Shown here: positions 1,805-64,000 of the stretch, piece by piece
Position numbering within the stretch: position 1 is the first letter of the stretch
Layout of the letters: each line of letters starts with the position of its first letter
Assembly (NCBI GenBank): GCA_028700115.1
Contig: JAQVTI010000001.1
Location: 107,798-171,797, forward strand
Direction of reading: 5' to 3'
Source of the DNA: Candidatus Iainarchaeum sp.
GTDB taxonomy: Archaea; Iainarchaeota; Iainarchaeia; Iainarchaeales; CSSED10-239
Length of the DNA stretch: 64,000 nucleotides
Notes under the pieces: model-generated
Seen by the model: the letters and a program-made list of their open reading frames with translations, nothing else
Told to the model about the DNA's origin: nothing
Database searches by the model: none
Translations under genes and position numbers: made by a program

Positions 1805-2314
1805 TTATCTAATTAATTCTAATTGTATAGAATCATTATCAAAATTATCTTTAATAATTTGATTACATAAAGGAGAGATATAATTATTAGATATTTCTTT
1901 ACTAAAATTTAATGTTCTTGATAAAGATAAATCAGAAACTAATTCTCCTGAATAAGAACAAGCTATTTTAATTGAGCCAGTATAGTTAGAACTATTTAAA
2001 TTTGCAGAAAAATCAGAATAATTACAATTAATTGAACTTAAATTATTTATTTCTTGAAAATATAAATTTAAATAATTTTCTACCTTTAAATTATAATCTA
2101 ATTTAGAAGAAATATTACAATCAGAATAAGAAGTATCTGCAAGAGCATCAGCAATAACATTATCTACAGAAATAACTACATCTGTTGAAAACATTTCTAA
2201 ATCTTTTACAATATTAACCTGCCCAACATAATTCACATTTGGTACAAAAAATGCAAGCATAATTAATAAAAATATTGAATTAAATAAACCTTTTTGATTC
2301 ATAATACTCCTCAC
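1805..2314 (-). CDS. type IV pilin-like protein (class III signal peptide), Asn/Ser-rich secreted
   Basis: N-terminus MRSIMNQKG-LFNSIFLLIMLAFF: charged stretch, Gly, then hydrophobic helix resembling archaeal prepilin peptidase sites. Many N-x-S/T sequons. Last of four tandem similar genes. Confidence 0.5.
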   Translation of the reverse strand: MRSIMNQKGLFNSIFLLIMLAFFVPNVNYVGQVNIVKDLEMFSTDVVISVDNVIADALADTSYSDCNISSKLDYNLKVENYLNLYFQEINNLSSINCNYSDFSANLNSSNYTGSIKIACSYSGELVSDLSLSRTLNFSKEISNNYISPLCNQIIKDNFDNDSIQLELIR

Positions 2315-2588
2315 AATAAAATTTATTTAAATTATTATAATTTAATGAATTATCTTCTGTTGAATAAAAAACATATCTTAAACACCAATAATCATTATCA
2401 ATATCCCCAACAGGAATATTTGGAGTTTTACTTAAAAGTTTAGAAGAATAAACCACATCTATATTATTTTGAGAATCTTGTGAAAATGAAAAATATATAG
2501 TAGTAGTTAATACTGCAGCAAATATTATAAAAATAATTACATAATATAAAGTTGTTAAACTAAAAATAAAACCATTTTTATTATTCAT
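2280..2588 (-). CDS. small pilin-like / membrane-anchored protein
   Basis: N-term MNNKNG-FIFSLTTLYYVIIFIIFAAV. Weaker class III signal-like motif. Sits in the tandem pilin-like array and overlaps its neighbours by a few codons. Confidence 0.35.
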   Translation of the reverse strand: MNNKNGFIFSLTTLYYVIIFIIFAAVLTTTIYFSFSQDSQNNIDVVYSSKLLSKTPNIPVGDIDNDYWCLRYVFYSTEDNSLNYNNLNKFYCEEYYESKRFI

Positions 2589-3099
2589 TATACCACACTT
2601 TTAAATGTGCAATAGATATATTTAAATCACAATTTGAACTTCCTTCTATACAAGAAAGATATTTTTCTTTAGAAATATATTTAAAATCACTAATAATCAC
2701 ATTAAAATCAATTTCATAAACATTATCTATATTTGATTGTAATATATCATTACAAGAATTATTTAAAATATTAAATGAATCTATACTAAAATTACATTTA
2801 TAATTATCTAAAAGACCTAAAGAATTTTTATTAATATTTGAATCTGTATAAAAACAATTTCTAAAAACAAAACTATTATCTGAATTACTAATAAAACAAT
2901 TTATTTTAGAATTTTGAGAGATATTATTAAAAGCAATTTGAGATATTGAAGATAATTCTTTTTCTTTAAGAGTAGATTGAGTATTATATATTTTTAAATC
3001 AACAAATCTATTTAAAAGAAAAAACATAATAGTAAGTAAAACTATTGCAATAACAATATCTAAAACCATCATTTGTGCTTTTTCTTTTTTTATAAACAT
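2581..3099 (-). CDS. type IV pilin-like protein (class III signal peptide)
   Basis: MFIKKEKA-QMMVLDIVIAIVLLTIMFF matches the archaeal pilin consensus K-[GA]-Q-x-S/x-hydrophobic. Asn/Ser-rich mature part with N-glycosylation sequons. Confidence 0.55.
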   Translation of the reverse strand: MFIKKEKAQMMVLDIVIAIVLLTIMFFLLNRFVDLKIYNTQSTLKEKELSSISQIAFNNISQNSKINCFISNSDNSFVFRNCFYTDSNINKNSLGLLDNYKCNFSIDSFNILNNSCNDILQSNIDNVYEIDFNVIISDFKYISKEKYLSCIEGSSNCDLNISIAHLKVWYNE

Positions 3100-3136
3100 A
3101 TTTTAATCCATTTTATATTTATATTAAGATATTTAA

Positions 3137-3598
3137 TTAACTACAAATAACCTTATATGTAGATAAATTATAACTGCATTTAAGCTCGTCTCCACAAAAT
3201 GTATTTACATCTGTAGAAAACATATTAAATTTAGTTGGGAGAGTATATTCTATATATTTTTTACCTTTATAATCTGTAAAAATATATATAGAATCATTAG
3301 AAATATTTATATTACAATTTGCTTTAAAACTAAGAGTTCTTATATTTGGTATTTTTAAAATAGAATTATAGTTATTTAAATTAAAATTTGAATCATAATT
3401 ATTTATAGATTCAGTATATGCAAGATATTCATTTATTAAGAGAGCAATTTCTTTTTGATCTGAAATAATTTTGTTAACTTCTAAAGTATAAACATTATCT
3501 TTTGATAGATTATCATATATAAATATAAATAATATAACAAATACAATGATAAATAAAACCTCAATAGAAAATTGAGCTTTTTTATTTTTTAAAAACAT
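3137..3598 (-). CDS. type IV pilin-like protein (class III signal peptide)
   Basis: MFLKNKKA-QFSIEVLFIIVFVILFIFIY. The QFSIE motif closely resembles the processed N-termini of euryarchaeal pilins and archaellins (KGQISMEI-type). Confidence 0.6.
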   Translation of the reverse strand: MFLKNKKAQFSIEVLFIIVFVILFIFIYDNLSKDNVYTLEVNKIISDQKEIALLINEYLAYTESINNYDSNFNLNNYNSILKIPNIRTLSFKANCNINISNDSIYIFTDYKGKKYIEYTLPTKFNMFSTDVNTFCGDELKCSYNLSTYKVICS

Positions 3599-3720
3599 AT
3601 ATTATTTTCCTTTAATATATAATAAATTAATATTATATAATATATATAAAACATTTATAAATAATAGTTTTTAAATAAAAAAAAGAAAATTAAAAAAATA
3701 TAATAAAAAAAATATAAAAT

Positions 3721-18683: not shown

Positions 18684-20192
18684 CTATTGGTTTTCTAAAA
18701 TAATTTGATATTGTTCATTCAAATATTCTGATTCAGAAGCATATTTATCCATAATTGGTAAAACAATTTTTTCTTGCCCTAAAGAATCTTTTAAACTAAA
18801 TAAAAGTCTATGTGTTTCTAAATAAACTCCTTGTTCTTGAGCACATCTAGAAAATACAGCTGGGAAAATTGCAGAAGTTTCATGAACAACAAAATCTTTA
18901 ATAACAAGATATGCTTTATTTGTGTCCACATATTCCTCTATAAACTTTTCTTGAGTATCTTTTTCAAATAATGTACAATATGGACAATCATAATCTGTAA
19001 AAACATAAACCCCAAAATTAGAATATTTATTTCCAATAACATAATCGTTTGAATTTTCTAAAACAGTAGAATCAATTAACTTATATACAAAATCAAGACC
19101 ACTAGAAGAAACTAAATTAGGCATAACAAATGGATTTAAAAGATAACCTTTTGATTTTGTTTCTATAAATAATTGCTCAAAAAAACTTTGAAAATTTTGA
19201 TCATAAACATCATCTTCAAAAATATTTCCTTCAATATATATAGCTGGGATTGAATCTATTTGAGAACCTTCTATAATTTTTTTAGCATTATCAGATTCAT
19301 AAGAAAGATAAATAGTTTCAAAAGAATCTAAAATATCTGTGAAAAATTCTTTAACATCTAAAGTTAAATTTTCTGAATTTTTTAAAGAATTTATAAATTC
19401 AATTGTATTTTGTTTAGAAACAGCATTATTTTCATTTGTAATAATATATATTTTTGGAACAGAATTTACATCTGAAATAAAAGTATTATTATAATCAAAA
19501 GAAATAATTGGATCATTTAAAGTAAAATCAATTTTTTCTTTAAAAGAATTATAATCAACATATCCTGGTAACAAATAACCATTTAAATATATTCCAGGAG
19601 TACCTGTTATTCCTAAAACATTAGCAAGAGAAATATCTTCAGTAATTTTTTTTATAATATCTGCTTTTTCAAGATTTAAATTTGGATTTGAATAATCATT
19701 TTCTATAATACAAGCATCCATTAATTCTTTATTAATATTTAAATCTTTATAATATGGTTCTAAAACTTCTAATTGTGCAAACTTTATATCTCTAAAAATA
19801 TTTGATTGAAGAGAAGTCACTCTTTCTTCAAATTCTTCTAAACTAAGATTTTCTACAATATTGTTATCTATTTGATTTTCATCTAAAAAAGAATTTTGAT
19901 CAATAGATGAAGAACTGTCAATATTTTTAGGATATAAAATAATTAAAATTACAATTGCAATAATTAATAAACCTAAAACAATAATTGTTGCAATATCTTT
20001 AGATTTATATTTTTTAGTAGACTTTACTTTAGAAATCTTTTTTTTATCATTAGAAGACGCATCTTTCTTTTTAGAAACAATATTATTATCAGAAATAGAA
20101 TTTTTCTTTTTTGAAATATTCTTATTTTCTTTAACTACAACCTTTTTTTGTAGTTTCTTTTTATTACTTTTTTTAGTTGCCAAAATAACCAC
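18684..20192 (-). CDS. membrane-anchored DsbA-like thiol:disulfide oxidoreductase with two thioredoxin-fold regions
   Basis: Lys-rich cytoplasmic N-terminus and a single TM (IATIIVLGLLIIAIVILIILY). First domain carries GITGTPGIYLNG cis-Pro-type DsbA motifs. Second domain carries the CPYC active site (DYDCPYCTLFEKD). Confidence 0.6.
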   Translation of the reverse strand: MVILATKKSNKKKLQKKVVVKENKNISKKKNSISDNNIVSKKKDASSNDKKKISKVKSTKKYKSKDIATIIVLGLLIIAIVILIILYPKNIDSSSSIDQNSFLDENQIDNNIVENLSLEEFEERVTSLQSNIFRDIKFAQLEVLEPYYKDLNINKELMDACIIENDYSNPNLNLEKADIIKKITEDISLANVLGITGTPGIYLNGYLLPGYVDYNSFKEKIDFTLNDPIISFDYNNTFISDVNSVPKIYIITNENNAVSKQNTIEFINSLKNSENLTLDVKEFFTDILDSFETIYLSYESDNAKKIIEGSQIDSIPAIYIEGNIFEDDVYDQNFQSFFEQLFIETKSKGYLLNPFVMPNLVSSSGLDFVYKLIDSTVLENSNDYVIGNKYSNFGVYVFTDYDCPYCTLFEKDTQEKFIEEYVDTNKAYLVIKDFVVHETSAIFPAVFSRCAQEQGVYLETHRLLFSLKDSLGQEKIVLPIMDKYASESEYLNEQYQIILENQ

Positions 20193-40899: not shown

Positions 40900-43044
40900 A
40901 TGTGTTCGATTGCAGGTAGCTTTAATTTAACTCAAAGCATCAAAAATTGTTATGAAATGAATGTTTTAATGCAAAAAAGAGGTCCTAACCACACATCTTT
41001 TGCACACATCAAAGATAATAAAGTATATATTTATGAATATACAGATAGATTTGAACAAAACAATACAATAAGCCATAATTTACTTGCAATTGTAGGAAAC
41101 ATATCTCAACCTATAAAATATAAAAACACATTAATTACATCTAATTGTGAGATATATAATTGGAAAGAAATTTGTAAAAAAGAAAAAATAAATGCAAGAA
41201 ATGACTCAGAGATGTTAATTAAACTTTTTGAGAAAGAAAAAGTAAATAAGAAAACTTTAGAAAAACTAGATGGAGCATATGCATTTTGTTTCTGGAAAGA
41301 AAACAAAATTTATCTTGCAAGAGATATTTTAGGAGTAAAACCTTTATGGTTTTCATATGAGAACAAAAGTTTTTGTTTTGCATCAGAAAAAAAAGCCTTA
41401 GAAAAAATTGGACGAGAAAAAATAGAATTTTTAGATCCAAGAAAGATTTTAATTTATGATATTAATAAAAATCTAATTAACTATAAAAAAAGAGAATTTA
41501 TAAAAATTAAAGAAAATAAAAATGGTTTAGAAAAAAATAAAAAAATAATTCAAGAAAAATTAGAACAAGCAATTATTAAAAGAATTCCAGAAAAAAAACT
41601 AGCACTTCTTTTTAGTGGAGGAATAGATTCTACAATAATTGCAATGATTCTTAAAAAACACAAAATAGATTTTACAGCATACTTTGCACATCTTAAAGGA
41701 TATAATGAAAATAAAGATTTAGAATATGTTAGAGAGATTGCAAAAAAATATAAAATTAAATTAAAAATTAAAAGTTTAGATTATAAAGACTTAGAAAAAA
41801 ATATTAAACAAGTTGTAAAAACTATTGAATCAACTAACCCTATTAAAATAGGAGTTGGCTTACCTATTTATCTTGCAAGTAAACTTGCTTCAAAAGATAA
41901 AAATAAAGTTATTTTTTCAGGACTTGGTTCTGATGAGATTTTTGCAGGATATAATAGATTTAAAGAATCTAAACATATTCAAAAAGACACACTTAATCTA
42001 CTTTATCAAATACATGAAAATGATTTAAATAGAGACGACTCTCTTACAATGGAAAACAGTATTGAGTTAAGACTTCCTTTTTTAGATTTACCTTTAATTA
42101 AAGAAGTAATTGGAATTGAAGATAAACAAAAAATTAACTCTGAAGAAAATAAAATTATCTTAAGAGAGATTTCAAAAGAATATAGTCTAGATGAAAAATA
42201 TTTTAAAAGAAAAAAAGTTGCTGCACAATATGGTTCTGGGTTTGATAAAGGAATAATTAAACTTTCAAAAGAAAATAAATTTAAATCAAAATCAGAATAT
42301 CTAAAAACTTTTTTAGAAAAGCAGAATCTTAATTTAGGATGTTTATATTCTTCTGGAAAAGACTCTAATCTTTCTTTAAATATTCTAAAAAAACAAAATT
42401 ATAAAATAAAATGTTTAATTTCTATTATTCCAGAAAACAAAGACTCATACATGTATCAAACTCCTGATTTAAAAATTTTAAAAGCACAATCAGAATGTAT
42501 AGAAATACCTTTAGTTTTAGGAAAAACAAAAGGTGAAAAAGAAAAAGAATTAATTGATCTTAAAAAAGTAATTAAAAAAGCAAAAGATAAATACAATCTG
42601 CAAGGAATTGTCTCAGGTGCATTATTTAGTAACTACCAAAGAGAAAGAATTCAAAACATATGTAATGATTTAGGTTTAAGATTGTTTTCACCTCTATGGA
42701 ATATAAACCAAGAAAAAGAAGTTTTGAAATTAATAAAAGAAAAATTTGATTTTAGAATTGTTAAAATTGCTGGATATGGACTAAATAAAGATTGGTTTTT
42801 AAGAAAAATAGATTTAAAAGCTTTAGAAGAACTTAAAAAACTAAATAAGAAATATGGTTTCAATGTAGCAGGAGAAGGTGGAGAATTTGAAACTATTGTT
42901 TTAGACTCACCTGATTTTAAAAAAAAAATAAAAGTTATAGACTACAAGATAAATTTAGAAAATGAATTTACTGGTGAAATTGAAATTAAAAAAATAAAAA
43001 TAGAAGAAAAAAGAAAAACTAATTCTAACAAGTACAACCAATAG
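40900..43044 (+). CDS. asparagine synthetase-like glutamine amidotransferase (Ntn Cys2 + PP-loop) fused to a C-terminal Dph6/MJ0570-type (DUF71, ATP_bind_4) PP-loop domain
   Basis: MCSIAG N-terminal nucleophile; SGGIDST PP-loop at about residue 235. The C-terminal approximately 230 aa carry a second PP-loop SSGKDS and the EGGEFET motif characteristic of diphthine-ammonia ligase-type enzymes. Confidence 0.6.
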   Translation: MCSIAGSFNLTQSIKNCYEMNVLMQKRGPNHTSFAHIKDNKVYIYEYTDRFEQNNTISHNLLAIVGNISQPIKYKNTLITSNCEIYNWKEICKKEKINARNDSEMLIKLFEKEKVNKKTLEKLDGAYAFCFWKENKIYLARDILGVKPLWFSYENKSFCFASEKKALEKIGREKIEFLDPRKILIYDINKNLINYKKREFIKIKENKNGLEKNKKIIQEKLEQAIIKRIPEKKLALLFSGGIDSTIIAMILKKHKIDFTAYFAHLKGYNENKDLEYVREIAKKYKIKLKIKSLDYKDLEKNIKQVVKTIESTNPIKIGVGLPIYLASKLASKDKNKVIFSGLGSDEIFAGYNRFKESKHIQKDTLNLLYQIHENDLNRDDSLTMENSIELRLPFLDLPLIKEVIGIEDKQKINSEENKIILREISKEYSLDEKYFKRKKVAAQYGSGFDKGIIKLSKENKFKSKSEYLKTFLEKQNLNLGCLYSSGKDSNLSLNILKKQNYKIKCLISIIPENKDSYMYQTPDLKILKAQSECIEIPLVLGKTKGEKEKELIDLKKVIKKAKDKYNLQGIVSGALFSNYQRERIQNICNDLGLRLFSPLWNINQEKEVLKLIKEKFDFRIVKIAGYGLNKDWFLRKIDLKALEELKKLNKKYGFNVAGEGGEFETIVLDSPDFKKKIKVIDYKINLENEFTGEIEIKKIKIEEKRKTNSNKYNQ

Positions 43045-44299
43045 CTGCACAACTTTTACCCCAAGCAGTTGCCATTGCTTGACAAAGTGCGACATTACCG
43101 TCTGTAGATGACCTATAAAACATATCACTTGTATCAGTTGTAATCGAAACATTCCATGAAGATAAATTTCTATTCATTTTAGTTCTACCAAACATATAAT
43201 ACATAGTAGATACATTTGAAACATCCCAATTAGATAAATCTTGGTTAAAATTACTTGCATATGCGAACATATTACGCATATTATTAATATTTGAAACATC
43301 CCAATTATTCATATTAGAAACATAAGATACATTTGAACAATTTCTAAAAAAACCTTCTAAACTAGTAACCCCATTTAAATCTAAAATATCAGTTGCAGTT
43401 ATACTAGTTAAATTACTACAACCATAAAATGCATTTGTACTAAATTTTGGGTTAAACCCCCCCCAATGAGATATATTTGTAATTTTAGGATAATCTCCAG
43501 AAGCATTAAAAGACCAACCTTGAATAGTTCCAAACATATTTACATCATAAATTCCTGATGAAGAATAAGTATGTAATTTATCAGAATCATCATAAGAAGT
43601 TATTTCTGAAGTAGTCCCATCTCCCCAATCTACTGTAAAATCATAATTACCTTCAGAAACTAAAGGTAAAGATATTTGATTAGCTTCACTAGATCCAGTA
43701 GAAGTTTTTGTAGTATCCCAAGTTGAAGAAAAATAAGGAATTATACAATCTTGACCACATGAAGAAATTGTTTCATCTCCATTACAAGTTCCATCTCCAC
43801 AATAAGGTGCATTATCACATGAAACAAGACTTGCTCCTAAATAACTTACAGGAATAGAAATATATTTACCATCATTAGTTTTTAATTCTAAAATAAATTC
43901 TTTTGAAGGAATACATATTATATCTAATTGATTACTTCTATTTGGATTAATAACTAAAGGAGTTTCTAAAGTATATTCTGTGTTTATAAAATTTGTATTT
44001 TCTGCGGTTGTAGAAATTAATTTATATGCAACAACATTTAAATCTTTATTAAAATTGTTATTTTCTAAAACAACTTTAGAATAATCCCCAGACATACTTT
44101 CATAAACAGATCTGTATTTTATAAACCCATCTAAATCTGATTTATCATAAGTAACTACAGAAGATTCATCTAGATTAGATGTAGTAAAATCTTTTGAAAA
44201 AGAAACAATTCCTGCAATTAAAACAACTGAAACTAAAACAATTAAAACAGTTGCAATTAATGGAGAAATTGCTTTTTTATAAAAATCATTGCCAAACAT
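43025..44299 (-). CDS. surface protein with archaeal class III (pilin-type) signal peptide, Cys-rich module and C-terminal DUF285/BspA-like repeats
   Basis: Start taken at MFGNDFYKKA-ISPLIATVLIVLVSVVLIAG (archaeal pilin N-domain-like). The longer track ORF begins at 44383. CGDGTCNGDETISSCGQDC module. Repeats NFNQDLSNWDVSNVSTMYYMF / NLSSWNVS..DMF typical of DUF285. Confidence 0.55.
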   Translation of the reverse strand: MFGNDFYKKAISPLIATVLIVLVSVVLIAGIVSFSKDFTTSNLDESSVVTYDKSDLDGFIKYRSVYESMSGDYSKVVLENNNFNKDLNVVAYKLISTTAENTNFINTEYTLETPLVINPNRSNQLDIICIPSKEFILELKTNDGKYISIPVSYLGASLVSCDNAPYCGDGTCNGDETISSCGQDCIIPYFSSTWDTTKTSTGSSEANQISLPLVSEGNYDFTVDWGDGTTSEITSYDDSDKLHTYSSSGIYDVNMFGTIQGWSFNASGDYPKITNISHWGGFNPKFSTNAFYGCSNLTSITATDILDLNGVTSLEGFFRNCSNVSYVSNMNNWDVSNINNMRNMFAYASNFNQDLSNWDVSNVSTMYYMFGRTKMNRNLSSWNVSITTDTSDMFYRSSTDGNVALCQAMATAWGKSCAAIGCTC

Positions 44300-46927: not shown

Positions 46928-47779
46928 CTATAAAAGAAATATTAAAATATAAATAATTACAAAAAGCATAAATAAAGTTTGAAGGGGAAGAGCAGGAAGT
47001 GCTTTTATTTTTTTAGACTTAGAAAGAATTACAAAAGTTAAAACCAATCCTAAAATAGAAGCAAGCCAAATAAACATAATAGGAAATATTGTTTGAATAA
47101 AGGTATATTTACCAATTAATATATAAAAAAAAGATACAGAAGTTAATAATGGAATAACAATATCTCCCCCTCCAAGTTGATATACTTTTCTTTTAGTAGG
47201 AATAGAAAATGTAAAAGCTAATTTTTTTTTAATAACCATATTTGCTAAAACCACCATATGCTTTGTATAAAAAACAGCAATAATATCATAAATAGATAAT
47301 AAAATTATAAAAACGATTACAGGAATAACACCTAAAGATAAACCAATAATAGACCCTGCTCCTGCAATAGATATAGCTAATAAAAAATTATTATACCACA
47401 TTAAAAGTTTTATATTTTTTTTAAATTTTAAAAAATTTCTAAAAACTAATAAAAACAAACTAATTAACAAAGCAAAATAATAAGATAAAAAAACATCAAA
47501 AACAACTACACAACCAACAAATAAAGCCATAATTTCAAAAAAATTAAGATAATTTTGTTTTTTAAAAAATCTTTTTAAAAAAATCATAAGAAAAGTAAAT
47601 ATTAAAATTTCAATTAAAATACCAAAAGCATTAATTACATTATTAGGATCTTCTGTAAATACACCTCTAACAGCATCTTGATTTAAATAATAATTTGCAG
47701 AAATTAACCCAATTATTTGTATAAATACAAAAATTAAAATAAAAATTATAAAAAAATTAAAATCTAATTTTTTAGTCAT
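46928..47779 (-). CDS. presenilin / signal-peptide-peptidase family intramembrane aspartyl protease (A22) homolog
   Basis: Multi-TM protein with the three family motifs in order: YD (LSIYDIIAVF), GxGD (QLGGGDIVIP) and PAL (KALPALP). Confidence 0.65.
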   Translation of the reverse strand: MTKKLDFNFFIIFILIFVFIQIIGLISANYYLNQDAVRGVFTEDPNNVINAFGILIEILIFTFLMIFLKRFFKKQNYLNFFEIMALFVGCVVVFDVFLSYYFALLISLFLLVFRNFLKFKKNIKLLMWYNNFLLAISIAGAGSIIGLSLGVIPVIVFIILLSIYDIIAVFYTKHMVVLANMVIKKKLAFTFSIPTKRKVYQLGGGDIVIPLLTSVSFFYILIGKYTFIQTIFPIMFIWLASILGLVLTFVILSKSKKIKALPALPLQTLFMLFVIIYILIFLL

Positions 47780-50727: not shown

Positions 50728-51069
50728 TTAATTTACATAATAATTATATAAATAATTTGCAGCACCTTGACAACTTGCTTGACAAGCTTGCATATTATAA
50801 TTACAACTAGATACTGATGATCCACTATCTATACATATTTCAAAATTATCCTTACAACCATTAATACACCAATTATAAAAAGCACTATTATATGGAGATT
50901 CTTCATCTAAAGAAAATGGATTTGCAATAGATATAGGTTGTGAAATAATATTGTTTGCAGAACCAGATATTGTTAAATCATTTATTAAAAAACCAACAAT
51001 TATTCCAATAACTAAAGCAATAATTACTAAAAGACTTAACTTTAAATTATTTTTCATAAAACTAAACAC
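50728..51069 (-). CDS. small secreted/membrane-anchored Cys-rich protein (10 Cys in 60 aa)
   Basis: N-terminal hydrophobic segment LSLLVIIALVIGIIVGFLI, then NWCINGCKDNFEICIDSGSSVSSCNYNMQACQASCQG. Confidence 0.4.
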   Translation of the reverse strand: MFSFMKNNLKLSLLVIIALVIGIIVGFLINDLTISGSANNIISQPISIANPFSLDEESPYNSAFYNWCINGCKDNFEICIDSGSSVSSCNYNMQACQASCQGAANYLYNYYVN

Positions 51070-52710: not shown

Positions 52711-55020
52711 ATGAAGATAGGAAAATATACTGTTGGAAACTACATAGTTACTCAAGAAGGAAATAAAAAAAAATTAGTTTTTGACTGTAGAAACTGTCCA
52801 TATAATACATCAATTGCAGAAGATGCAAGATGTAGATACCATGTTTTAAAAACATTAGAAACAATAGATGCAGATGAAATAATATTAGCAGAAGTATATG
52901 AAAGAAGCTATGATAAAATACAAACAAAATTTTTAAAAGAAATGGTAAATCTTGGGATGGATTTTGAAAATAAAGCTGTTTGGGTTTCAGAACATTTAAA
53001 TATTAATGATATTGATTGCGATCAATGTTACCCACAAAGACATAATAATATTTTAAAATTTGCAAGAGAACTAATCTCATATGACCCAATAGCATCATAT
53101 ATAACTTTATTAAAAGAAATAGAAAACAATAAAACAAGAGAAGAAGACTCAAAAGGAAAAGAATGCGAAAAATGCTTTACTGCAAATATAAATCATTTAT
53201 TAAATTTAAAAAAACAATATGAAAAAACTGAGTTTATTAGAAGAATCAAACCAATTTTAGTAAAAAGCAAAGATCTTTCTGACTTAACAGATATTTATAG
53301 AACCATTTTTGAAGTAGAAATAAAACCATCTTTTATTGGATCTAAAATATCTTTTGAAAATATGGATAAATTAGAACTAATAGACGAATACCAAGTATTA
53401 AACACAAATGTACAAATATTTAAACATCCAGAAAAAATAGAATATATGTATATGATTAACCCCCCAGAGTACACACTTTCTCCAGACCATTATTTTGTAC
53501 TTACAAAAACAAAAGAAACTGTTGCAAACTATGCTCCTGGAACAGTTACTCTTACAACAGGGGATTCAACTAGAAAATACTTTCAAAGAATATATCAAAG
53601 CACAATAACAGATATTGCACGAAAATTTGCAATAAACATAAATGCAGAAGACATTTTTGCACTTTCTGAAATAGTTACAAGATATACAATTGGATATGGA
53701 ATTTTAGAATTACTACTTTCAGACAGACAAGTAACAGATGTTTATCTAGACTCACCACTTGGTTCAAAACCAATCTATTTAGTTCACTCTAAATATGGAC
53801 AATGCCAAACAAACATACAATACCCAGAAAGCGATGCTGAAAGCTTTATTGGAAAAATTAGAGCAATGTCTGGAAGACCATTTGATGATGCACATCCAAT
53901 TTTAGACTTTGATTTACCAGATCTTAACACAAGAATTGCAATTATTGGAAGACCTCTTGCAACTGATGGGATTGCATTTGCATTCAGACTTCATAAAGAC
54001 ACTCCTTGGACTCTACCACAGTTAATAAATGTAAAATCACTTAACTCACTTGCAGCAGGTATGCTTTCATTTTTTATAGATAATAATTCAACTATGCTAA
54101 TTGCAGGATCACGTGGTGCAGGAAAAACTTCTTTAATGACTTCTTTAATGCTTGAGATTCTACAAAACAGTAGAATCATAGTTCAAGAAGACACATTAGA
54201 ACTTCCTGTAATGTACATGAAAGATATTGGGTTTAATGCCCAAAGACTAAAAACAAGATCTGCAATTGGTGGAACAGGAGATCTAGCAACATCTGAAGTT
54301 AAACCAGAAGATGCTCTAAGAACAGCTTTAAGACTTGGTGACTCTGCTTTAATTGTTGGGGAAGTTAGAAGTGTTGAGGCTAAAGTTTTATATGAAGCCA
54401 TGAGAATTGGTGCAGCTGGAAATGTTGTTATGGGAACAATACATGCTGATTCAGCTTATGCAGTTTGGGATAGAGTTGTAAATGATCTAGAAGTTCCAAC
54501 AACTTCTTTTAAGGCAACTGATATTGTAGTTGTTGCAAAGCCTATAAGATTTAAAGGATCTTTAAAAAACCATAGAAGAGTAGTTCAAATCACAGAAGTT
54601 AGAAAGCATTGGAATAATGATCCAGATGCAGAAGGCGGACTTTTAAACTTAATGGAATATGATGCTTCAAAAGATACACTTGTTTTAAATGAAGATGCTC
54701 TAAAAGACTCTGAGATGTTTACAAAGATAAGTAAACTTTCTGGTATGAAGATAGAAGAGATTTGGGAGAACATTAACTTAAGGTCAAAAGAGAAACAGTT
54801 CCAAGTAGATTTTGCAAAAGAAAAAGATGTGATTGAAATTTTAGAGGCAGAACACACTGTTTTTGCACACAACAAGCTTCTTATCATGAAAGAAGAATAT
54901 TTGGAGTATTATAATGATAAGCTAGATTATAATGATTTATACGAAAAATGGAAAAAATGGTATACAGAAAGCTTTGCTCCAAGAGTAATTAAAAGAATAA
55001 AAGATAATAGAATTGAATAA
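52711..55020 (+). CDS. FlaI/VirB11/TadA-family secretion ATPase (type IV pilus/archaellum assembly) with about 250 aa Cys-rich N-terminal extension
   Basis: Walker A GSRGAGKTS. Asp/Glu box IIVQEDTLEL. His box region TIHADSAY. N-terminal CRNCPYN...CRYH, CDQCYPQRH and CEKCF suggest a Zn-binding module. Confidence 0.65.
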   Translation: MKIGKYTVGNYIVTQEGNKKKLVFDCRNCPYNTSIAEDARCRYHVLKTLETIDADEIILAEVYERSYDKIQTKFLKEMVNLGMDFENKAVWVSEHLNINDIDCDQCYPQRHNNILKFARELISYDPIASYITLLKEIENNKTREEDSKGKECEKCFTANINHLLNLKKQYEKTEFIRRIKPILVKSKDLSDLTDIYRTIFEVEIKPSFIGSKISFENMDKLELIDEYQVLNTNVQIFKHPEKIEYMYMINPPEYTLSPDHYFVLTKTKETVANYAPGTVTLTTGDSTRKYFQRIYQSTITDIARKFAININAEDIFALSEIVTRYTIGYGILELLLSDRQVTDVYLDSPLGSKPIYLVHSKYGQCQTNIQYPESDAESFIGKIRAMSGRPFDDAHPILDFDLPDLNTRIAIIGRPLATDGIAFAFRLHKDTPWTLPQLINVKSLNSLAAGMLSFFIDNNSTMLIAGSRGAGKTSLMTSLMLEILQNSRIIVQEDTLELPVMYMKDIGFNAQRLKTRSAIGGTGDLATSEVKPEDALRTALRLGDSALIVGEVRSVEAKVLYEAMRIGAAGNVVMGTIHADSAYAVWDRVVNDLEVPTTSFKATDIVVVAKPIRFKGSLKNHRRVVQITEVRKHWNNDPDAEGGLLNLMEYDASKDTLVLNEDALKDSEMFTKISKLSGMKIEEIWENINLRSKEKQFQVDFAKEKDVIEILEAEHTVFAHNKLLIMKEEYLEYYNDKLDYNDLYEKWKKWYTESFAPRVIKRIKDNRIE

Positions 55021-56004: not shown

Positions 56005-56028
56005 AACTAATTTTATTTTTATAAAAAA
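55976..56028. repeat. left copy of 53-bp perfect direct repeat (aaaaaactatgctttttgaaaaagcataaaactaattttatttttataaaaaa)
   Basis: Identical to 57485..57537. The pair brackets the AAA-ATPase gene. Confidence 0.9.
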
Positions 56029-57362
56029 CTTTTTGGTTTTTCTAACATAGCTAAAAACATACATACAGGTATAACTAAATTATTATTTAGATTAATATCT
56101 GCAGGTGCAACTAAATTTTTTGAAAGCATAATATATTCATCAACATCTTCTATAAAATTAGGTTTTTTAAATTTATTTCTATATTTAACTTCAATTGCTT
56201 TATTTTTAAAAACAAAATCAATTTCTTTTTGATCTACATTATAATATTTTAATTCTAAATTATAAATATTTTGTAAATGACTACCAACTGTATTTTCTAC
56301 AAGCTTACCTAAAAAAGTATCATTAAATAAAAGAGATCTACTTTCTTCAAAAGAATCTAAATTATTTGAATAGTTTAATAAAGAATGAATAATAAAAGGA
56401 TCTTTAATATAAAATTTCTTTAAAAGATCTCTTGCAGATTCTTTTATTTCAAAAATAATTAATAATTCTTTTAATTCATTTAAATATTTTTTAATAGTAT
56501 CTATAGAATAACCTGTTTTTTCACTAATAGTTGTATATTTTAAAGAACCAGTTAAAGATTCAATTAAAACTTTTAATATTTCAATAGATTTTGTTTTATC
56601 CATTTTTTCAAATATTTTTTGAATAATATCTTCATAATATTTTTCAGAAATTGAATTATTTTTAAAATAAGAGTTTATAGTTTCTGGAAAACCACCTGTT
56701 AATAAATAAATATTAAAATATTTATTAATTTCATCAAAATAAGATTCTATATTTAAAAATTTACTAAGTATATCTTCATTAGATAAATTTAAATTAATTT
56801 CAGACTTAACTAAAAGGTTATATAAACTTAAATTATCAGTTTTAGTTATATTTAAAAGAAATTGCCTAAAAGTTAAAGAAGACATAACTTTTATTTCTTC
56901 AGATCTTCCAATTAATGCTTGTTTACATTCTTCAATTTTTCTAGGATCAGAACCAGTAACTACTAAACAAATATCTTTTAATAAATTAGAATCTTTTAAA
57001 GCTTTTAAAAAGGCACAACTATTTTGTAAAGATTGAATCTCATCAAATAAAATAATTTTAATAGGATATAAATTAATTATTTTTTCCATTTGCCTAAATA
57101 GTTCTTTTTCTTTTAAATTTAATAAAATATCAAAATTAAAATAAATTACTTCCTTTGAATTAGTAGAATAAGCAATTTGTTTTAAATAAATTGTTTTTCC
57201 TACTCTTCTAGGTCCTTTAATTAAATTTATAGTCCCAGGAGTAAGATTTATAGAATCTCTAGTTATAATATATTTATTTTTAGATAAATTATCTATATCT
57301 GGATCTTTTTTTCCTGAAAACCAGGGATTTTGACTTAAAACAACATTCCAATCTAAAGGCAT
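56019..57362 (-). CDS. AAA+ ATPase of the archaeal COG1373 / DUF4143 type
   Basis: Walker A GPRRVGKT, Walker B ILFDEIQ. C-terminal DUF4143-like region. Confidence 0.6.
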   Translation of the reverse strand: MPLDWNVVLSQNPWFSGKKDPDIDNLSKNKYIITRDSINLTPGTINLIKGPRRVGKTIYLKQIAYSTNSKEVIYFNFDILLNLKEKELFRQMEKIINLYPIKIILFDEIQSLQNSCAFLKALKDSNLLKDICLVVTGSDPRKIEECKQALIGRSEEIKVMSSLTFRQFLLNITKTDNLSLYNLLVKSEINLNLSNEDILSKFLNIESYFDEINKYFNIYLLTGGFPETINSYFKNNSISEKYYEDIIQKIFEKMDKTKSIEILKVLIESLTGSLKYTTISEKTGYSIDTIKKYLNELKELLIIFEIKESARDLLKKFYIKDPFIIHSLLNYSNNLDSFEESRSLLFNDTFLGKLVENTVGSHLQNIYNLELKYYNVDQKEIDFVFKNKAIEVKYRNKFKKPNFIEDVDEYIMLSKNLVAPADINLNNNLVIPVCMFLAMLEKPKSFL

Positions 57363-57484
57363 ATATTAATTATACACCTATAAGTTTATAAATTTATCTA
57401 AAAGTCAACTAGTTAACTAGTTGAAATTATCTAAAAGTCAACTAATTAACTAATTAACTAATTAACTAATTAATTAAATAATAA

Positions 57485-57537
57485 AAAAAACTATGCTTTT
57501 TGAAAAAGCATAAAACTAATTTTATTTTTATAAAAAA
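57485..57537. repeat. right copy of 53-bp perfect direct repeat
   Basis: See left copy. Preceded by operator-like motifs at 57397..57475. Confidence 0.9.
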
Positions 57538-57538
57538 A

Positions 57539-58114
57539 TCATACATTAATATAGTCTTTATGAATATACTCTTTTACAAATAATAAAACATCTTTATTTG
57601 TAAATTGATTTATACTCTTTTTATGATCTTCAAAAAACAGTTCATAACAATATCTAAGATATGAAGGATTAAGAGTTTTTACTTGGTTAAAAAATTTAAC
57701 TTTTAACTCTTTAGAAATATCTAATTCTTTTATTTTTTTATCTAATTTATATTTTAAGATATTTCCTTGTCTATCAGATCTATTAACATAGATTTCTGCT
57801 TCACGTTTTTCTATTTGTGCATATTTTAAAAAATGTTCAACAATTTTTATATATTCTTTTTGAGTTAGTTTTTTCATTAACTCTTTTGTAGTCATGTTTT
57901 TTTTATCTCTTAAAAGAATATTATGCATATGAAAAACAATATCAGAATCTGATAAAAATTTATCTTTTTGTTTAATTAGTTCTCTTAGTTTAGGGTCTAC
58001 TACTTTTTGATTTAGTTTCTTTGTAGACCTATTTCTAGTTATTTTAAAACTTTGTCTTTTTTCCTTAAATGTATAAGGTTTATTTGTTTTTGGATTTATT
58101 TTTCTAAAAGGCAT
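57539..58114 (-). CDS. hypothetical basic protein
   Basis: ORF only. Starts 2 nt after the right direct-repeat copy. Confidence 0.3.
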   Translation of the reverse strand: MPFRKINPKTNKPYTFKEKRQSFKITRNRSTKKLNQKVVDPKLRELIKQKDKFLSDSDIVFHMHNILLRDKKNMTTKELMKKLTQKEYIKIVEHFLKYAQIEKREAEIYVNRSDRQGNILKYKLDKKIKELDISKELKVKFFNQVKTLNPSYLRYCYELFFEDHKKSINQFTNKDVLLFVKEYIHKDYINV

Positions 58115-58216
58115 AAATAATTAACTCTTTTATATTATAACAAATATATAAAAGATAAATAAATTTATAAATAGTAATTTTTATTAAAAAAATAAATTTT
58201 TTTAAAGAAAATTCAT

Positions 58217-58960
58217 TTAATTAATTTTATTTAAAATAAACTTACAAATAAGTTTAAAATCTAATCTATATTTTTTTAAAATATAATGATTTGTTGAATT
58301 ATTATACAATTTTATTTTATAATCATCATTTATTATATTATTTAATTTATTAATAACTATAGATTTATCTTTTATTGGAAAATTATTATCTTTTAGTATA
58401 ACATAGATATCATAAATATCTTTACCTTCATCTCTATTTATAAAAGCTTTAATTTTTTGATAAAATAATTCTTCTAAACTATAAACATTAAAATAAGATA
58501 TATCAAAATCAACAAATCCAGGATAAATTATTTTTTTATTAATATCAGGCATATCTTTATTATTTAATCTAAATTCAAGCATAATTTTATCTTTTTGATT
58601 AATCTCATTAATATACTGAATATCAAATCTAATTGTTTTATTCATGATTCTTGGTTTATTTACAATATAAGATTTCAAATATTTTTTTAAAATTAAATAA
58701 ATATCTTCTTTTAAAATATTTATTTCTTTTTTAGAAAAAATATCAAAATCAATATCTTCAGAAAATCTTTTAAATTTATTAAAATAAACTCTATTTAAAG
58801 AAGTTCCTCCTTTTAATATTATATTATCAAATTTATTCTCTAATAATTTAAATATTTTTGAAATTTCTTTATCTTTTATAATATAATTTGTAGATAATCC
58901 AGTATCTAAACAAATTTTTCTAATAAGTTTTATATCCATTAATTTAATACCACCAATCAA
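58217..58960 (-). CDS. abiEii: AbiEii/AbiGii-family nucleotidyltransferase toxin (type IV TA, DUF1814)
   Basis: IILKGGTSLNRVYFNKFKRFSEDIDFDIF matches the LKGGTAL...RFSEDIDF signature. Confidence 0.65.
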   Translation of the reverse strand: MIGGIKLMDIKLIRKICLDTGLSTNYIIKDKEISKIFKLLENKFDNIILKGGTSLNRVYFNKFKRFSEDIDFDIFSKKEINILKEDIYLILKKYLKSYIVNKPRIMNKTIRFDIQYINEINQKDKIMLEFRLNNKDMPDINKKIIYPGFVDFDISYFNVYSLEELFYQKIKAFINRDEGKDIYDIYVILKDNNFPIKDKSIVINKLNNIINDDYKIKLYNNSTNHYILKKYRLDFKLICKFILNKIN

Positions 58961-59732
58961 TTATATTTTTTTCACCTAAATTATCTTTTAGTTTCCATTT
59001 ATCTATATATTTTGATTTTTTATTATTTATATTTAATAAATAAGTATTAGATTTGTCTTGAGATAATAAATATTTTAAAAAATAATTAGGTATTTTTAAA
59101 TTTGTATTTTTAAGTAAAATATCTAAAATATAGCCAGTAATTTGATTTTGTCTTTTACTAGAGTATTTTTTATAAATTAATAATAATTTATTCCAATTTA
59201 TTTTATTTGAACCTAAATATATAGCTTTAGATAAAATAGAATAACTACCTATATATTTAAATTTATTAAAACAATCAAATATAGTTTTTTCTAAAGAAGA
59301 AATATAAATATTATCTATTCTTATAAAATCATTATAAAAATTAGTATTTATATATTTTAGATTATATTCATATAATTTAATATTTTTAGATTTTTTATTA
59401 GTAGAAATATATATGTTGAAAGGATGGTAATCTATTAAACCATAATAAAATAAAGCAGATGAAAAAGAAATATATCCAGGATATAAATTAGTTGCTATTT
59501 CAAAAAGATCATTTATTGAAAAAATATCTTTTTTAATATAATTATTTTTTTTAAGATTTAATAAATACCCTTTATCTTTTAATTGTTTTAATAAAAAATT
59601 AATCTTATAATTAGAATAATCTTTAAAAGCAGATTTTAAATCATTGTTTTTTAATATATTATTCTTTTTTTTAGAATCTATATAGTTATACAAATAATTT
59701 TCATTATTTGTTAATTGGTTATTTTTTTGCAT
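58944..59732 (-). CDS. abiEi: AbiEi-family antitoxin / transcriptional regulator
   Basis: YPGYISFSSALFYYGLIDYHP matches the AbiEi_4 motif YxSxxSALxxHGL. Overlaps the downstream toxin gene by 17 nt. Confidence 0.6.
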   Translation of the reverse strand: MQKNNQLTNNENYLYNYIDSKKKNNILKNNDLKSAFKDYSNYKINFLLKQLKDKGYLLNLKKNNYIKKDIFSINDLFEIATNLYPGYISFSSALFYYGLIDYHPFNIYISTNKKSKNIKLYEYNLKYINTNFYNDFIRIDNIYISSLEKTIFDCFNKFKYIGSYSILSKAIYLGSNKINWNKLLLIYKKYSSKRQNQITGYILDILLKNTNLKIPNYFLKYLLSQDKSNTYLLNINNKKSKYIDKWKLKDNLGEKNIIDWWY

Positions 59733-59937: not shown

Positions 59938-62493
59938 TTACATGTTTTCAATAACGTTGATTAATTCTTTAGCAGCCATTGCAGTGTCTTCAGCTGTCAT
60001 TCCAGCAACAACAATATTACCTTCAGCGTTTTGTCCTAATACATAGTCTCCAGAAGCTGTTAACATAGTATCTAATCCTATATTTTGAGCTAATGTGTTA
60101 ACTAAGTGACCACCAACAATGATTTTGTTTCCTGCTGGGTTTTCGTTATCAAGGTATACTAATTTGTTTGTTGCAACATTCCATGTCATTGGAACAATAG
60201 CATCAGTTGCAGCTCCACCAGATAAAGCAACAGCATCTAATGATACAGATACTCCGTCTTCTGTTTGTTGTTCTCCTTCAGCTGTTAAAGTGAATGTTGA
60301 ACCGTTAATTGATGTTGAAGTACTAGCTCCTCCACCAACGAAGATTTGTCCATATAATTTAGTATCAGGAACAATTGCAGTAAACATACCTCCGTCTACT
60401 TCAGCATATGTACCAAATTCTGTATATCCCCAAGTTAAATCATCAGAATCTTCTTGATTTAGTGTGTAAGTTACAGCATCACCAGTTGTGAAAGCTGAAT
60501 TTCCATTTACAACAAGAACTTGATCAACAACAGCTAAATAAGATGAATCATCTGTATCTACTAAATTTCCAGTTCCAGCATCAATATGAGCTACTACTGA
60601 ATCTTGACCATCATCAACAACAAATTCAAACATAGATTTCATATCAGTACCGTCTGTTAAAACACCTGTAGCAGTTTTACCAACATATGTACCATCACTA
60701 GTTGCAGCAACATCTATTTGTGTATATATATTTTTAATAGTCCAATCTTGAGTAGGACTATCAATAGTACCTTCAATAGATCCTGCAGCACCTTCTTTAA
60801 GACCTAATGCAAATTGAGTAATATCATTTGTTCCAGTTGCACCATCTTCGTTAATATATAAACCATAAGCTAATTTTTCAGATTCATTATTATATAATGG
60901 GATTGTTAAATCTGTAAATGCAGCATCTGTGTAAACAAATTTAGAATTATCTGTATTTGTTGTTTCCCAAGTCCAAACATTAGAAGTTTTTGTTAAGTAA
61001 TCTCCATCATCATCTTCTAATTGAACTGTGAAATAACCAATATCTAAAGCATCATTTGCAGCATTAGGAATTCCACCAACATTGGAATCTTCATTACCAT
61101 ATATAAAACTATCATAAGAACCTACATCTGTAGTAGTATTAAAATCCTCATCAGCTGTATGGAATTCAATGTATAATTTCTTATCATCTAATGTTTGCAT
61201 AGTTGTATAGTTTTCACCATCTCCGTAAGTTCCATCTTCTTCTTCATAAAAGAATACTTTGTGATCGTCGTCAGTAGCATCTATATAAGAAATATATCCA
61301 TCTTCAACAATTACTTCTTTTGATGATTCATTAGTTAAACCTAAAAAGTCAATAGAACCTAAATCAAATGGTAAAACAATAGAGTCATCTACTTTTAAAG
61401 CATCTTCATCTTCCCATTGAACATCTTGATCTTCATTAGTAAATACTATTTTTGTAATAGGATCAGAACCTGTAAAACTAACTTTCCATAATTTATCATC
61501 TATATTTGGGAAATCTTCAATAATTTGTCCACTTTCAAGCTCTATACTTGTACTTGTACCTGAAACAACAGTTACTTTTTTATCATAAACTGTATCTATT
61601 TCTACATTTGATTCTAAATATTCGTTGAATACTGTTTCATAATCTGTAAAAACTTCAGAAGCTAAAATTGCACCATTTTGAGAAATACTTAATTCAACAG
61701 AATAATTATTACTAGATTCTAAAATATCTTCAACAGTGATTGTATATCCGTCAACTTCAAAAGAAGCACCTTCTTCATAAGGAGCTGTATTTTTATTTTG
61801 AACTAAAGTTACAATTCCATTAGAATAGTCTTCAAGAGTATATTCATTACCCATTAAATTAAATTTGAAATCAGGACTACCTTCATCATTAGCACCATTA
61901 TTAATTCCAGGATTAAATTCAAGAGTATATGAAATATCCCCTCTATCAAATGATGCTGTTAAATCAGCTACATCTTTATCTGAATCAAAAGCAACTGTAG
62001 GAGTAATAGTAATACTTTCTTGTACATTTATTTCATCAGTATCAAAAATACTATCATCAACATCTACGTCATAATCTCCTAAAACAGAATAATCTCTGTC
62101 ATCAAGAGTTTCTGTAACACTAGTAGATCCTAATTCCCAATCATCTGTTAACAAACCGTCTCCAGAAATTGTAGATGTTGATTCAGCACCAGCTGTAACA
62201 GTTACACTTTCTAATGCAGCTCCAGCGATTGCGTCACCTGATGTGTAAGCTTTCTTTCCAATAGCAGCAGCTATGTTTCCAGCCCATACAACATCAACTG
62301 GTTGAGCCATAGATCCAACGATTACATTGTAAGCTGGTCCTGTAGCACCAAATAATTGATCTTTTGTTAAGTTGTCTATTCCAGTGTATGTGTCATCTGC
62401 CATGTTAGCAGCAGCAACAGCACCTGCAAATAAAGCAGAAACTGCAAAAACACCTGCACCAGCAACTATTTTCTTCATATTTATATTCTTCAT
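59938..62493 (-). CDS. putative S-layer / major cell-surface protein
   Basis: Sec signal MKKIVAGAGVFAVSALFAGAVAAA. 851 aa, Thr/Asp/Gly/Val-rich with almost no Lys, unlike the K/N/I-rich rest of the window. Local GC clearly higher. Long AT-rich promoter region. Confidence 0.5.
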   Translation of the reverse strand: MKNINMKKIVAGAGVFAVSALFAGAVAAANMADDTYTGIDNLTKDQLFGATGPAYNVIVGSMAQPVDVVWAGNIAAAIGKKAYTSGDAIAGAALESVTVTAGAESTSTISGDGLLTDDWELGSTSVTETLDDRDYSVLGDYDVDVDDSIFDTDEINVQESITITPTVAFDSDKDVADLTASFDRGDISYTLEFNPGINNGANDEGSPDFKFNLMGNEYTLEDYSNGIVTLVQNKNTAPYEEGASFEVDGYTITVEDILESSNNYSVELSISQNGAILASEVFTDYETVFNEYLESNVEIDTVYDKKVTVVSGTSTSIELESGQIIEDFPNIDDKLWKVSFTGSDPITKIVFTNEDQDVQWEDEDALKVDDSIVLPFDLGSIDFLGLTNESSKEVIVEDGYISYIDATDDDHKVFFYEEEDGTYGDGENYTTMQTLDDKKLYIEFHTADEDFNTTTDVGSYDSFIYGNEDSNVGGIPNAANDALDIGYFTVQLEDDDGDYLTKTSNVWTWETTNTDNSKFVYTDAAFTDLTIPLYNNESEKLAYGLYINEDGATGTNDITQFALGLKEGAAGSIEGTIDSPTQDWTIKNIYTQIDVAATSDGTYVGKTATGVLTDGTDMKSMFEFVVDDGQDSVVAHIDAGTGNLVDTDDSSYLAVVDQVLVVNGNSAFTTGDAVTYTLNQEDSDDLTWGYTEFGTYAEVDGGMFTAIVPDTKLYGQIFVGGGASTSTSINGSTFTLTAEGEQQTEDGVSVSLDAVALSGGAATDAIVPMTWNVATNKLVYLDNENPAGNKIIVGGHLVNTLAQNIGLDTMLTASGDYVLGQNAEGNIVVAGMTAEDTAMAAKELINVIENM

Positions 62494-63709: not shown

Positions 63710-64000
63710 CTATCTCCTTCCACCACTAACTGCATCTTCTATTGTCCAATTAAAATTATTTATAATATAGTCTTTTGCAGTAAGTCCATCTCCAGAAGGA
63801 GTACTATTTCCTGCATCAAAAGATACATTTGATTGTAAAGGCAATTTACTCCAACTAATTAATAAAGAATTATAATTTGAAGAAGATAAAGAAGTAATTG
63901 AAAACATATTTCCCATATCTGTTACATTAGAAACATTCCAAGAAGCTAAATTTTGATCGAAAACCTCATTATTACAAAACATATAATACATATTATTTAC
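63710..64000 (-). CDS. DUF285/BspA-like surface protein, C-terminal part (continues past window end)
   Basis: MYYMFCNNEVFDQNLASWNVSNVTDMGNMF repeats, same family as 43025..44299. Reading frame is open to nt 64000. Confidence 0.5.
   Translation of the reverse strand, partial: VNNMYYMFCNNEVFDQNLASWNVSNVTDMGNMFSITSLSSSNYNSLLISWSKLPLQSNVSFDAGNSTPSGDGLTAKDYIINNFNWTIEDAVSGGRR

Follow-up and report, generated by a model that had tools for sequence, protein, structure and literature searches.

A conserved four-gene operon encoding candidate type IV pilin-like proteins in an Iainarchaeota-type DPANN archaeon

The sequence analyzed here is a 64 kb stretch (64,000 nucleotides) of contig JAQVTI010000001.1 from Candidatus Iainarchaeum sp., referred to below as the window, and our subject is a quartet of small genes, A to D, at positions 1805-3598. 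We consider it probable that this one operon encodes four different type IV pilin-like proteins of a surface filament in a DPANN archaeon of the Iainarchaeota/Diapherotrites type.

Gene layout and the leader motif

As the initial annotation had stated, the open reading frame (ORF) call places four genes in succession on the minus strand, and together they fill 1805-3598 exactly. Gene A (3137-3598), the first gene of the operon, encodes 153 amino acids (aa) and is separated by 37 nucleotides (nt) from gene B (2581-3099, 172 aa), which in turn overlaps gene C (2280-2588) by 8 nt. Gene C, at 102 aa the smallest of the four, overlaps gene D (1805-2302, 165 aa) by 23 nt. The longest ORF at gene D begins with a GTG at 2314; we placed the start at the ATG at 2302 instead, because this codon has a GAGGAG Shine–Dalgarno sequence 4 nt upstream and because the public gene calls also give a protein of 165 aa. 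By their common orientation and their overlaps, A to D are a single operon.

The four protein families show the features that FlaFind-type prediction looks for in class III signal peptides, namely, a leader that is short and charged and ends in K/R (−2) and G/A (−1), followed by a hydrophobic stretch of ~20 residues. With the predicted cut marked by a slash, the N-termini read MFLKNKKA/QFSIEV in A, MFIKKEKA/QMMVLD in B, MNNKNG/FIFSLT in C, and MNQKG/LFNSIF in D, and the shorter forms quoted in the initial annotation (KKA-QFSIEV, KEKA-QMMVLD, QKG-LFNSI, and KNG-FIFSL) were correct. In a six-frame translation of the window, a strict FlaFind-like pattern matched A and B only, so that the class III signals proposed for C and D are recovered by a relaxed pattern alone. 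The relaxed pattern also added one further real protein (43025-44299, discussed below), and its remaining matches were internal or antisense artefacts.

The motif was then tabulated in aligned orthologs, comprising 21 sequences of A and eight each of B, C, and D (45 sequences). The residue at −1, just before the hydrophobic segment, is G or A in 45/45 sequences of the four families, and the residue at −2 is K or R in 44/45, the sole exception being the Asn in the window's own C (KNG/F). Apart from this motif the leaders vary, their length being 4-16 residues, and beyond +7 the uncharged stretch reaches +20 to +34. Judged from this alignment, the [KR][GA] conserved in front of the hydrophobic helix is the pattern of prepilin-peptidase substrates, present far above chance, and the pattern first noticed in the window is thus conserved in the orthologs. 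A plain membrane anchor or a Sec signal is disfavored, because Gly/Ala is fixed at one position in four unrelated families and the motif precedes the hydrophobic core.

Conservation of the quartet and features of its families

The same quartet, with its order kept and the genes similar in size, adjoins ABCE1 in seven further DPANN loci (L004, L005, L007, L008, L009, L010, and L011), which come from independent metagenomes and metagenome-assembled genomes (MAGs); the window is the eighth. In the window, the upstream neighbor of A to D is EF-1beta (3987-3721) and the downstream neighbor is the convergent ABCE1 gene (88-1776), and EF-1beta lies directly upstream of the quartet in most of the seven further loci as well. 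Across loci, A to D are 26-64% identical to the window proteins, compared with 62-85% for ABCE1 of the same loci. On these figures the quartet is co-inherited and evolves approximately twice as fast as its housekeeping neighbors. Fast evolution is usual for surface proteins.

A to D are real, conserved genes. A hypothetical protein on JAQUYT010000002.1 (GCA_028691725.1), a MAG labeled 'Candidatus ainarchaeum sp.', has exactly the sequence of protein A. An exhaustive HMMER profile search of 1.84 billion representative proteins found only 22 representatives of family A, nearly all of them full-length (~145-163 aa), and by this census the family is confined to one clade. Word-indexed homology searches with A and D returned the query itself and one ortholog and nothing else, and a search of genome contigs with D gave no match.

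The initial annotation described the genes as a tandem array, a wording that is misleading, as the four proteins are not detectable paralogs. All-versus-all BLASTP of A to D gave no significant co-linear similarity, and the sole sub-threshold pair, A and B (E = 0.002), joins non-homologous positions. With hhalign, A and B were linked at 91% probability over the first 37 columns only, that is, the leader and the hydrophobic helix, and A versus D and B versus D gave nothing. Paralogy was therefore rejected; by these comparisons A to D are four distinct families with a common type of leader and not a duplicated array.

Family A follows the pattern K-[AG]/Q-x-S-[ILVF]-E, with Q at +1 in 21/21 sequences, S at +3 in 20/21, and E at +5 in 20/21. 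In the numbering of the alignment, Q9 is invariant, and K7, S11, and E13 are each conserved in at least 90% of the sequences; there are also four invariant Cys and a CG motif (CGQ in most). The family thereby carries the QxSxE signature of the PF04021/EppA type. In Methanococcus maripaludis, EppA substrates have a leader of 5-13 aa and, within the DUF361 domain, conserved Gln at +1 and Glu at +5 (PMC3875500). PF04021 (Class_IIIsignal) matched 8 of the 21 family A members below threshold at E <= 1, from model position 1; the scores were 10.8-16.5 bits against a gathering threshold of 23.7 bits, the best member reaching 16.5 bits (E = 0.008).

When the A profile was searched against the PDB, the single match at E <= 10 was a type IV pilin (8pfb PilE1, E = 0.88). 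The alignment covers 56 residues of the N-terminal helix and places Glu13 of A on pilin Glu5, which we take as a hint and not as proof. An AlphaFold2 model of A built from two sequences was mediocre, with a predicted local distance difference test score (pLDDT) of 71. The model built from the 21-sequence alignment reached a pLDDT of 88.9 and a predicted template modeling score (pTM) of 0.79, and has a continuous helix at 5-66 (62 residues) followed by seven beta strands. As modeled, A shows the generic pilin layout of a long helix and then a beta-sheet.

Family B follows the pattern [KR]-[AG]/Q-x-x-x-L-D, in which Q+1, L+5, and D+6 are invariant in the eight sequences. One of its Cys is invariant and the others are partly conserved, an invariant Trp stands near the C-terminus, and PF04021 did not match the family. 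Family C has the pattern K-[GA]/[FLY]-x-x-[ST]-x-T, with G/A at −1 in 8/8 sequences, K at −2 in 7/8, and an invariant Thr at +6; its members share an invariant WC...YC (two Cys), and most end in KRFI. In family D, K-G-L-F are all invariant in the eight sequences, as are four Cys. PDB profile searches with B, C, and D gave chance matches only.

The mature parts had been described as rich in Asn, Ser, and Thr and full of N-glycosylation sequons. The richness in Asn was confirmed, at 12-14% in A to D versus 7.4% in 42 background ORFs. The sequons number four in A, four in B, none in C, and seven in D; per 100 aa this amounts to 2.3-4.2 for A, B, and D versus 0.73 in the background. These counts match those of shuffled mature sequences, with D only marginally above (7 versus 3.4 expected, p ~0.03), and no sequon column is common to more than 8/21 A sequences, some orthologs having no sequon at all. 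An enrichment in N-glycosylation was rejected on these two grounds; A to D may be glycosylated, and the evidence in their sequences is best read as an effect of composition.

The cysteines, a more informative feature, are even in number and largely conserved (A 4, B 6, C 2, and D 4), at 2-3.5% of residues versus 1.0% in the background. Conserved cysteines are common in archaeal type IV pilus (T4P) components (PMC4858521). Elsewhere in the window, the gene at 18684-20192 (minus strand) encodes a membrane-anchored protein of 502 aa with one predicted transmembrane (TM) segment and thioredoxin/DsbA-like domains (PF13462, E = 6e-20; PF01323). As a possible extracytoplasmic disulfide oxidoreductase, it would suit the Cys pairs conserved in A to D.

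Candidate machinery and other genes in the window

A to D have no ATPase, platform, or peptidase gene as an immediate neighbor, and the sole T2SSE ATPase in the window is the one at 52711-55020, both as initially reported. This type II/IV secretion-family ATPase (FlaI/PilB-like; plus strand, 769 aa; PF00437, E = 1e-14) is a candidate assembly motor, which we infer may serve A to D. It has more than 1000 homologs, is 55-60% identical across Diapherotrites, with the close homologs labeled Candidatus Diapherotrites, and exceeds the quartet by far in conservation and in spread.

At locus L012, where the ATPase is 74% identical, it stands in the same orphan context as in the window (signal-peptide peptidase [SPP], MCM, RPA, ATPase, and S-layer). 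At two loci with ATPases that are 55-58% identical, L013 (10001-20077) and L014 (10001-18695), the ATPase heads an operon. The second gene of this operon encodes a protein of 770-809 aa, for whose L013 copy (809 aa) ~10 TM segments are predicted; further on come two paralogous genes with KG/QAFSVF... leaders, and the last part holds four more small genes, three of which have leaders of the types RG or KG/Q, KG/F, and KG/Q....D. Judged by this arrangement, the ATPase family works with proteins that have Gln+1 or Phe+1 leaders. The filament genes appear to be dispersed in the window's clade, suggesting operon fission, with the sister lineages keeping an ATPase-led operon.

The 770-809-aa multi-TM protein has no Pfam match, and hence no support as a FlaJ/TadC platform; a tblastn search with the 809-aa L013 protein, seeking a platform gene, gave no match, and no GxGD or A24-like protein was found near the L013 and L014 operons. 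Genuine multi-TM proteins in the window number just two, a Na+/H+ exchanger and a presenilin/SPP homolog (46928-47779, minus strand; PF06550, E = 5e-18; YD, GGGD, and PAL motifs). The latter was rejected as a prepilin peptidase, being a PF06550 GxGD intramembrane protease and not a member of the A24 family. In archaea, pilin loci that stand alone, away from the ATPase and platform genes, are the rule (PMC4858521; PMC3875500), and several pilin sets can share an archaeal ATPase/TadC pair (PMC4858521).

The further protein recovered by the relaxed pattern (43025-44299, minus strand, 424 aa) has a second class III-like leader, MFGNDFYKKA, followed by ISPLIATVLIVLVSVVLIAG (which begins ISPLIATVLIV), and this leader is fused to a DUF285/BspA-like domain (DUF285, E = 2e-23). 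PF07790 (Pilin_N) matched this protein and two orthologs below threshold, from model position 1; orthologs with the same N-terminus lie at L010:7128-8549 and L012:2436-3806. The protein is a candidate pilin-fused adhesin and could use the same machinery as A to D. At the window edge, an ORF at 63710-63991 (minus strand) matches DUF285 from its first residue and may belong to a larger gene.

Several other features of the window deserve a brief record. The quartet sits among housekeeping genes, and the AT-rich intergenic region from EF-1beta to gene A (3599-3720, minus strand) contains runs of T8, T7, and T8 downstream of EF-1beta; it is likely, on weak evidence, the terminator/promoter boundary of the A to D unit. 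The T-runs were not relied on as terminators, as such runs are ubiquitous at ~20% GC, the value found throughout the window. Between MCM and RPA, close to the ATPase, the gene at 50728-51069 (minus strand) encodes a protein of 113 aa that has a hydrophobic anchor at its N-terminus, a C-terminal region rich in Cys, and no family match. An S-layer protein (59938-62493, minus strand; PF05124, E = 1e-12) has an ordinary Sec-type signal peptide. Finally, a small islet at 56019-59732 (minus strand) is likely a defence or toxin-antitoxin insertion. It contains an AAA_14/DUF4143 ATPase and a nucleotidyltransferase toxin of the AbiEii type (PF08843, E = 4e-22), together with a partner gene that overlaps upstream, and it falls where the GC content of the window is at its minimum (14.7% at 58-60 kb).

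Interpretation, rival explanations, and known systems

In the mechanism that we propose, the four precursors would insert N-in, each with a short positive leader ending in Lys-Gly/Ala. A membrane prepilin peptidase of the A24 family (FlaK/PibD/EppA type), encoded elsewhere, would cut after the Gly/Ala, and the hydrophobic N-terminal helix would remain in the membrane after the cut. A type IV filament machine, which would include a platform protein along with the FlaI/PilB-like ATPase at 52711, would extract the mature proteins into a helical fiber. A would be the best candidate for the main, polymerizing subunit, because it is encoded by the first gene, has Gln+1 and Glu+5, and is ~145 aa long when mature; the Sulfolobus Aap and Ups pilins are similar in size (PMC3875500). 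B, C, and D would most likely be low-abundance minor pilins that initiate or cap the fiber, and the conserved Cys pairs may stabilize the extracellular heads as disulfides.

The initial suggestion that the genes encode pilins of a surface appendage is favored by the conserved motif, the EppA-type signature of A, and the model of A, and a number of results weigh against it. Pfam and NCBIfam scans of A to D found no model at cut-off and only sub-threshold noise, and the window's own A had no PF04021 match in the Pfam scan. A comparison with solved structures had been put forward initially as a check; Foldseek searches of both A models against the PDB gave nothing significant and no pilin, the best hits (E = 0.13) being sliding clamps. 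What is pilin-like in A is the modeled overall architecture, and among A to D the structure model and the architecture result cover A only. C and D have neither Gln+1 nor an acidic residue close to +5, and the Asn at −2 of the window's own C replaces a Lys found in its seven orthologs. Homology of A to D to the pilin-like genes of the L013 and L014 operons was not demonstrable (at most ~10 bits with hidden Markov models and at most 12% with hhalign). No gene for a prepilin peptidase or a FlaJ/TadC platform came to light, either in the 64 kb of the window or, in the relatives, up to ~10 kb from the quartet.

A rival view is that A to D are uncleaved type II signal-anchor proteins, which would form a membrane-tethered extracellular envelope complex (e.g., an S-layer or host-contact structure) with no filament and no processing. 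Each protein has one N-terminal hydrophobic segment of full TM length, the window holds no peptidase or platform gene, neither pilin families nor pilin structures gave a significant match, and the genes are located among housekeeping genes. We nevertheless judge this view unlikely: an anchor needs positive charge and not Gly/Ala, yet G/A occupies −1 in 45/45 sequences, directly after K/R, in four unrelated families, and A keeps Gln+1, Ser+3, and Glu+5 inside what would be its anchor, a membrane-embedded Glu being a hallmark of pilins (PMC3875500). The continuous 62-residue helix predicted for A would, moreover, be longer than a simple anchor. It is highly improbable that A to D carry class I signal peptides and are secreted by Sec in the ordinary way. 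The N-terminal hydrophobic segment and the composition, rich in Cys and in Asn, Ser, and Thr, would fit extracellular proteins of this kind, but an uncharged stretch to +20 to +34 is too long for a Sec h-region, the conserved motif precedes the hydrophobic segment with no conserved small-x-small cleavage region after it, and the S-layer protein of the window shows what a normal Sec signal of this genome looks like.

A different possibility, which we regard as doubtful but worth keeping in mind, is that the quartet is an archaeal analog of the bacterial four-minor-pilin tip/priming complex, with the major pilin encoded elsewhere. The bacterial sets, GspHIJK (GspH-I-J-K) of the type II secretion system (T2SS), FimU-PilVWX of the type IVa pilus (T4aP), and ComGD-GG of the Com pilus, form a tip complex that primes and caps the filament (PMC12153270). 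Like A to D, they consist of four distinct, small, contiguous, co-inherited genes, and the four non-paralogous pilin-like proteins of the quartet are always co-inherited, their fixed order being kept in 8 loci. The ATPase operons of the sister lineages, which hold two paralogous major-like genes plus four small genes, also speak for this possibility. Unlike the bacterial sets, A to D are not adjacent to a major pilin, ATPase, or platform gene, and they have no homology to bacterial minor pilins, with no sequence or profile similarity to any such family (NCBIfam ComGD, E = 8.8 and 6.7 bits versus a cut-off of 70; one member of family B against Pfam ComGE, E = 0.13). In addition, stand-alone pilin loci of archaea have so far proved to encode major pilins (PMC4858521), A has the features of a filament-forming subunit, and an acidic residue near +5 is present in only two of the four families.

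If A to D are the pilin-like subunits that we propose, they can be set beside two archaeal systems. The Epd/EppA-type (DUF361, PF04021) pilins of Methanococcus maripaludis and other Euryarchaeota ('system 1' of the type IV filaments, TFF) resemble family A in the short leader, Gln+1, and Glu+5, and family B in Gln+1 only. Common to these pilins and A to D are the need for several different pilin-like genes and the position of the pilin loci apart from the ATPase and platform (PMC3875500), and system 1 has been reported in some DPANN archaea (bioRxiv 10.64898/2026.04.22.720090). Unlike the Epd/EppA-type pilins, family A matches PF04021 only below threshold, and the window's A not at all; its globular domain has no detectable relatives beyond the 22 representatives, the leaders of A to D often end in Ala instead of Gly, position +1 of C and D is Phe or Leu with no acidic residue to follow, and an EppA gene was not found in the window. 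The PilA1-6 pilins of Haloferax (PF07790, Pilin_N) are likewise encoded outside the machinery operon, as singletons or in tandem (PMC4858521); unlike them, A to D have no PF07790 match even at E = 10 and do not have its conserved hydrophobic-domain sequence.

Methanococcus, Haloferax, and Sulfolobus already provide examples of scattered pilin loci and of several minor pilins, and A to D are not conceptually new. As far as their sequences allow us to say, they are new, clade-restricted families of archaeal pilin-like proteins within a known kind of system, with processing and assembly that we infer.

The genomes of DPANN archaea are tiny, and many of these organisms live attached to other cells, for which their surface filaments are the likeliest organs. 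The subunits of these filaments are mostly annotated as 'hypothetical'. By analogy, and with little confidence, one might picture the quartet as a fixed heterotetramer of one Iainarchaeota clade, which would nucleate a type IV filament that presents adhesins such as the DUF285 fusion (43025-44299) and would thereby attach this archaeon, with its small genome, to other cells. If the quartet were indeed a counterpart of the bacterial tip complexes, the principle of a 'four-pilin cap' would either predate the bacterial-archaeal split or have arisen twice. For annotation, A to D define four new co-inherited families of putative pilin-like proteins, each with a precise predicted cleavage site, which should be useful to those who annotate the surface structures of DPANN archaea.

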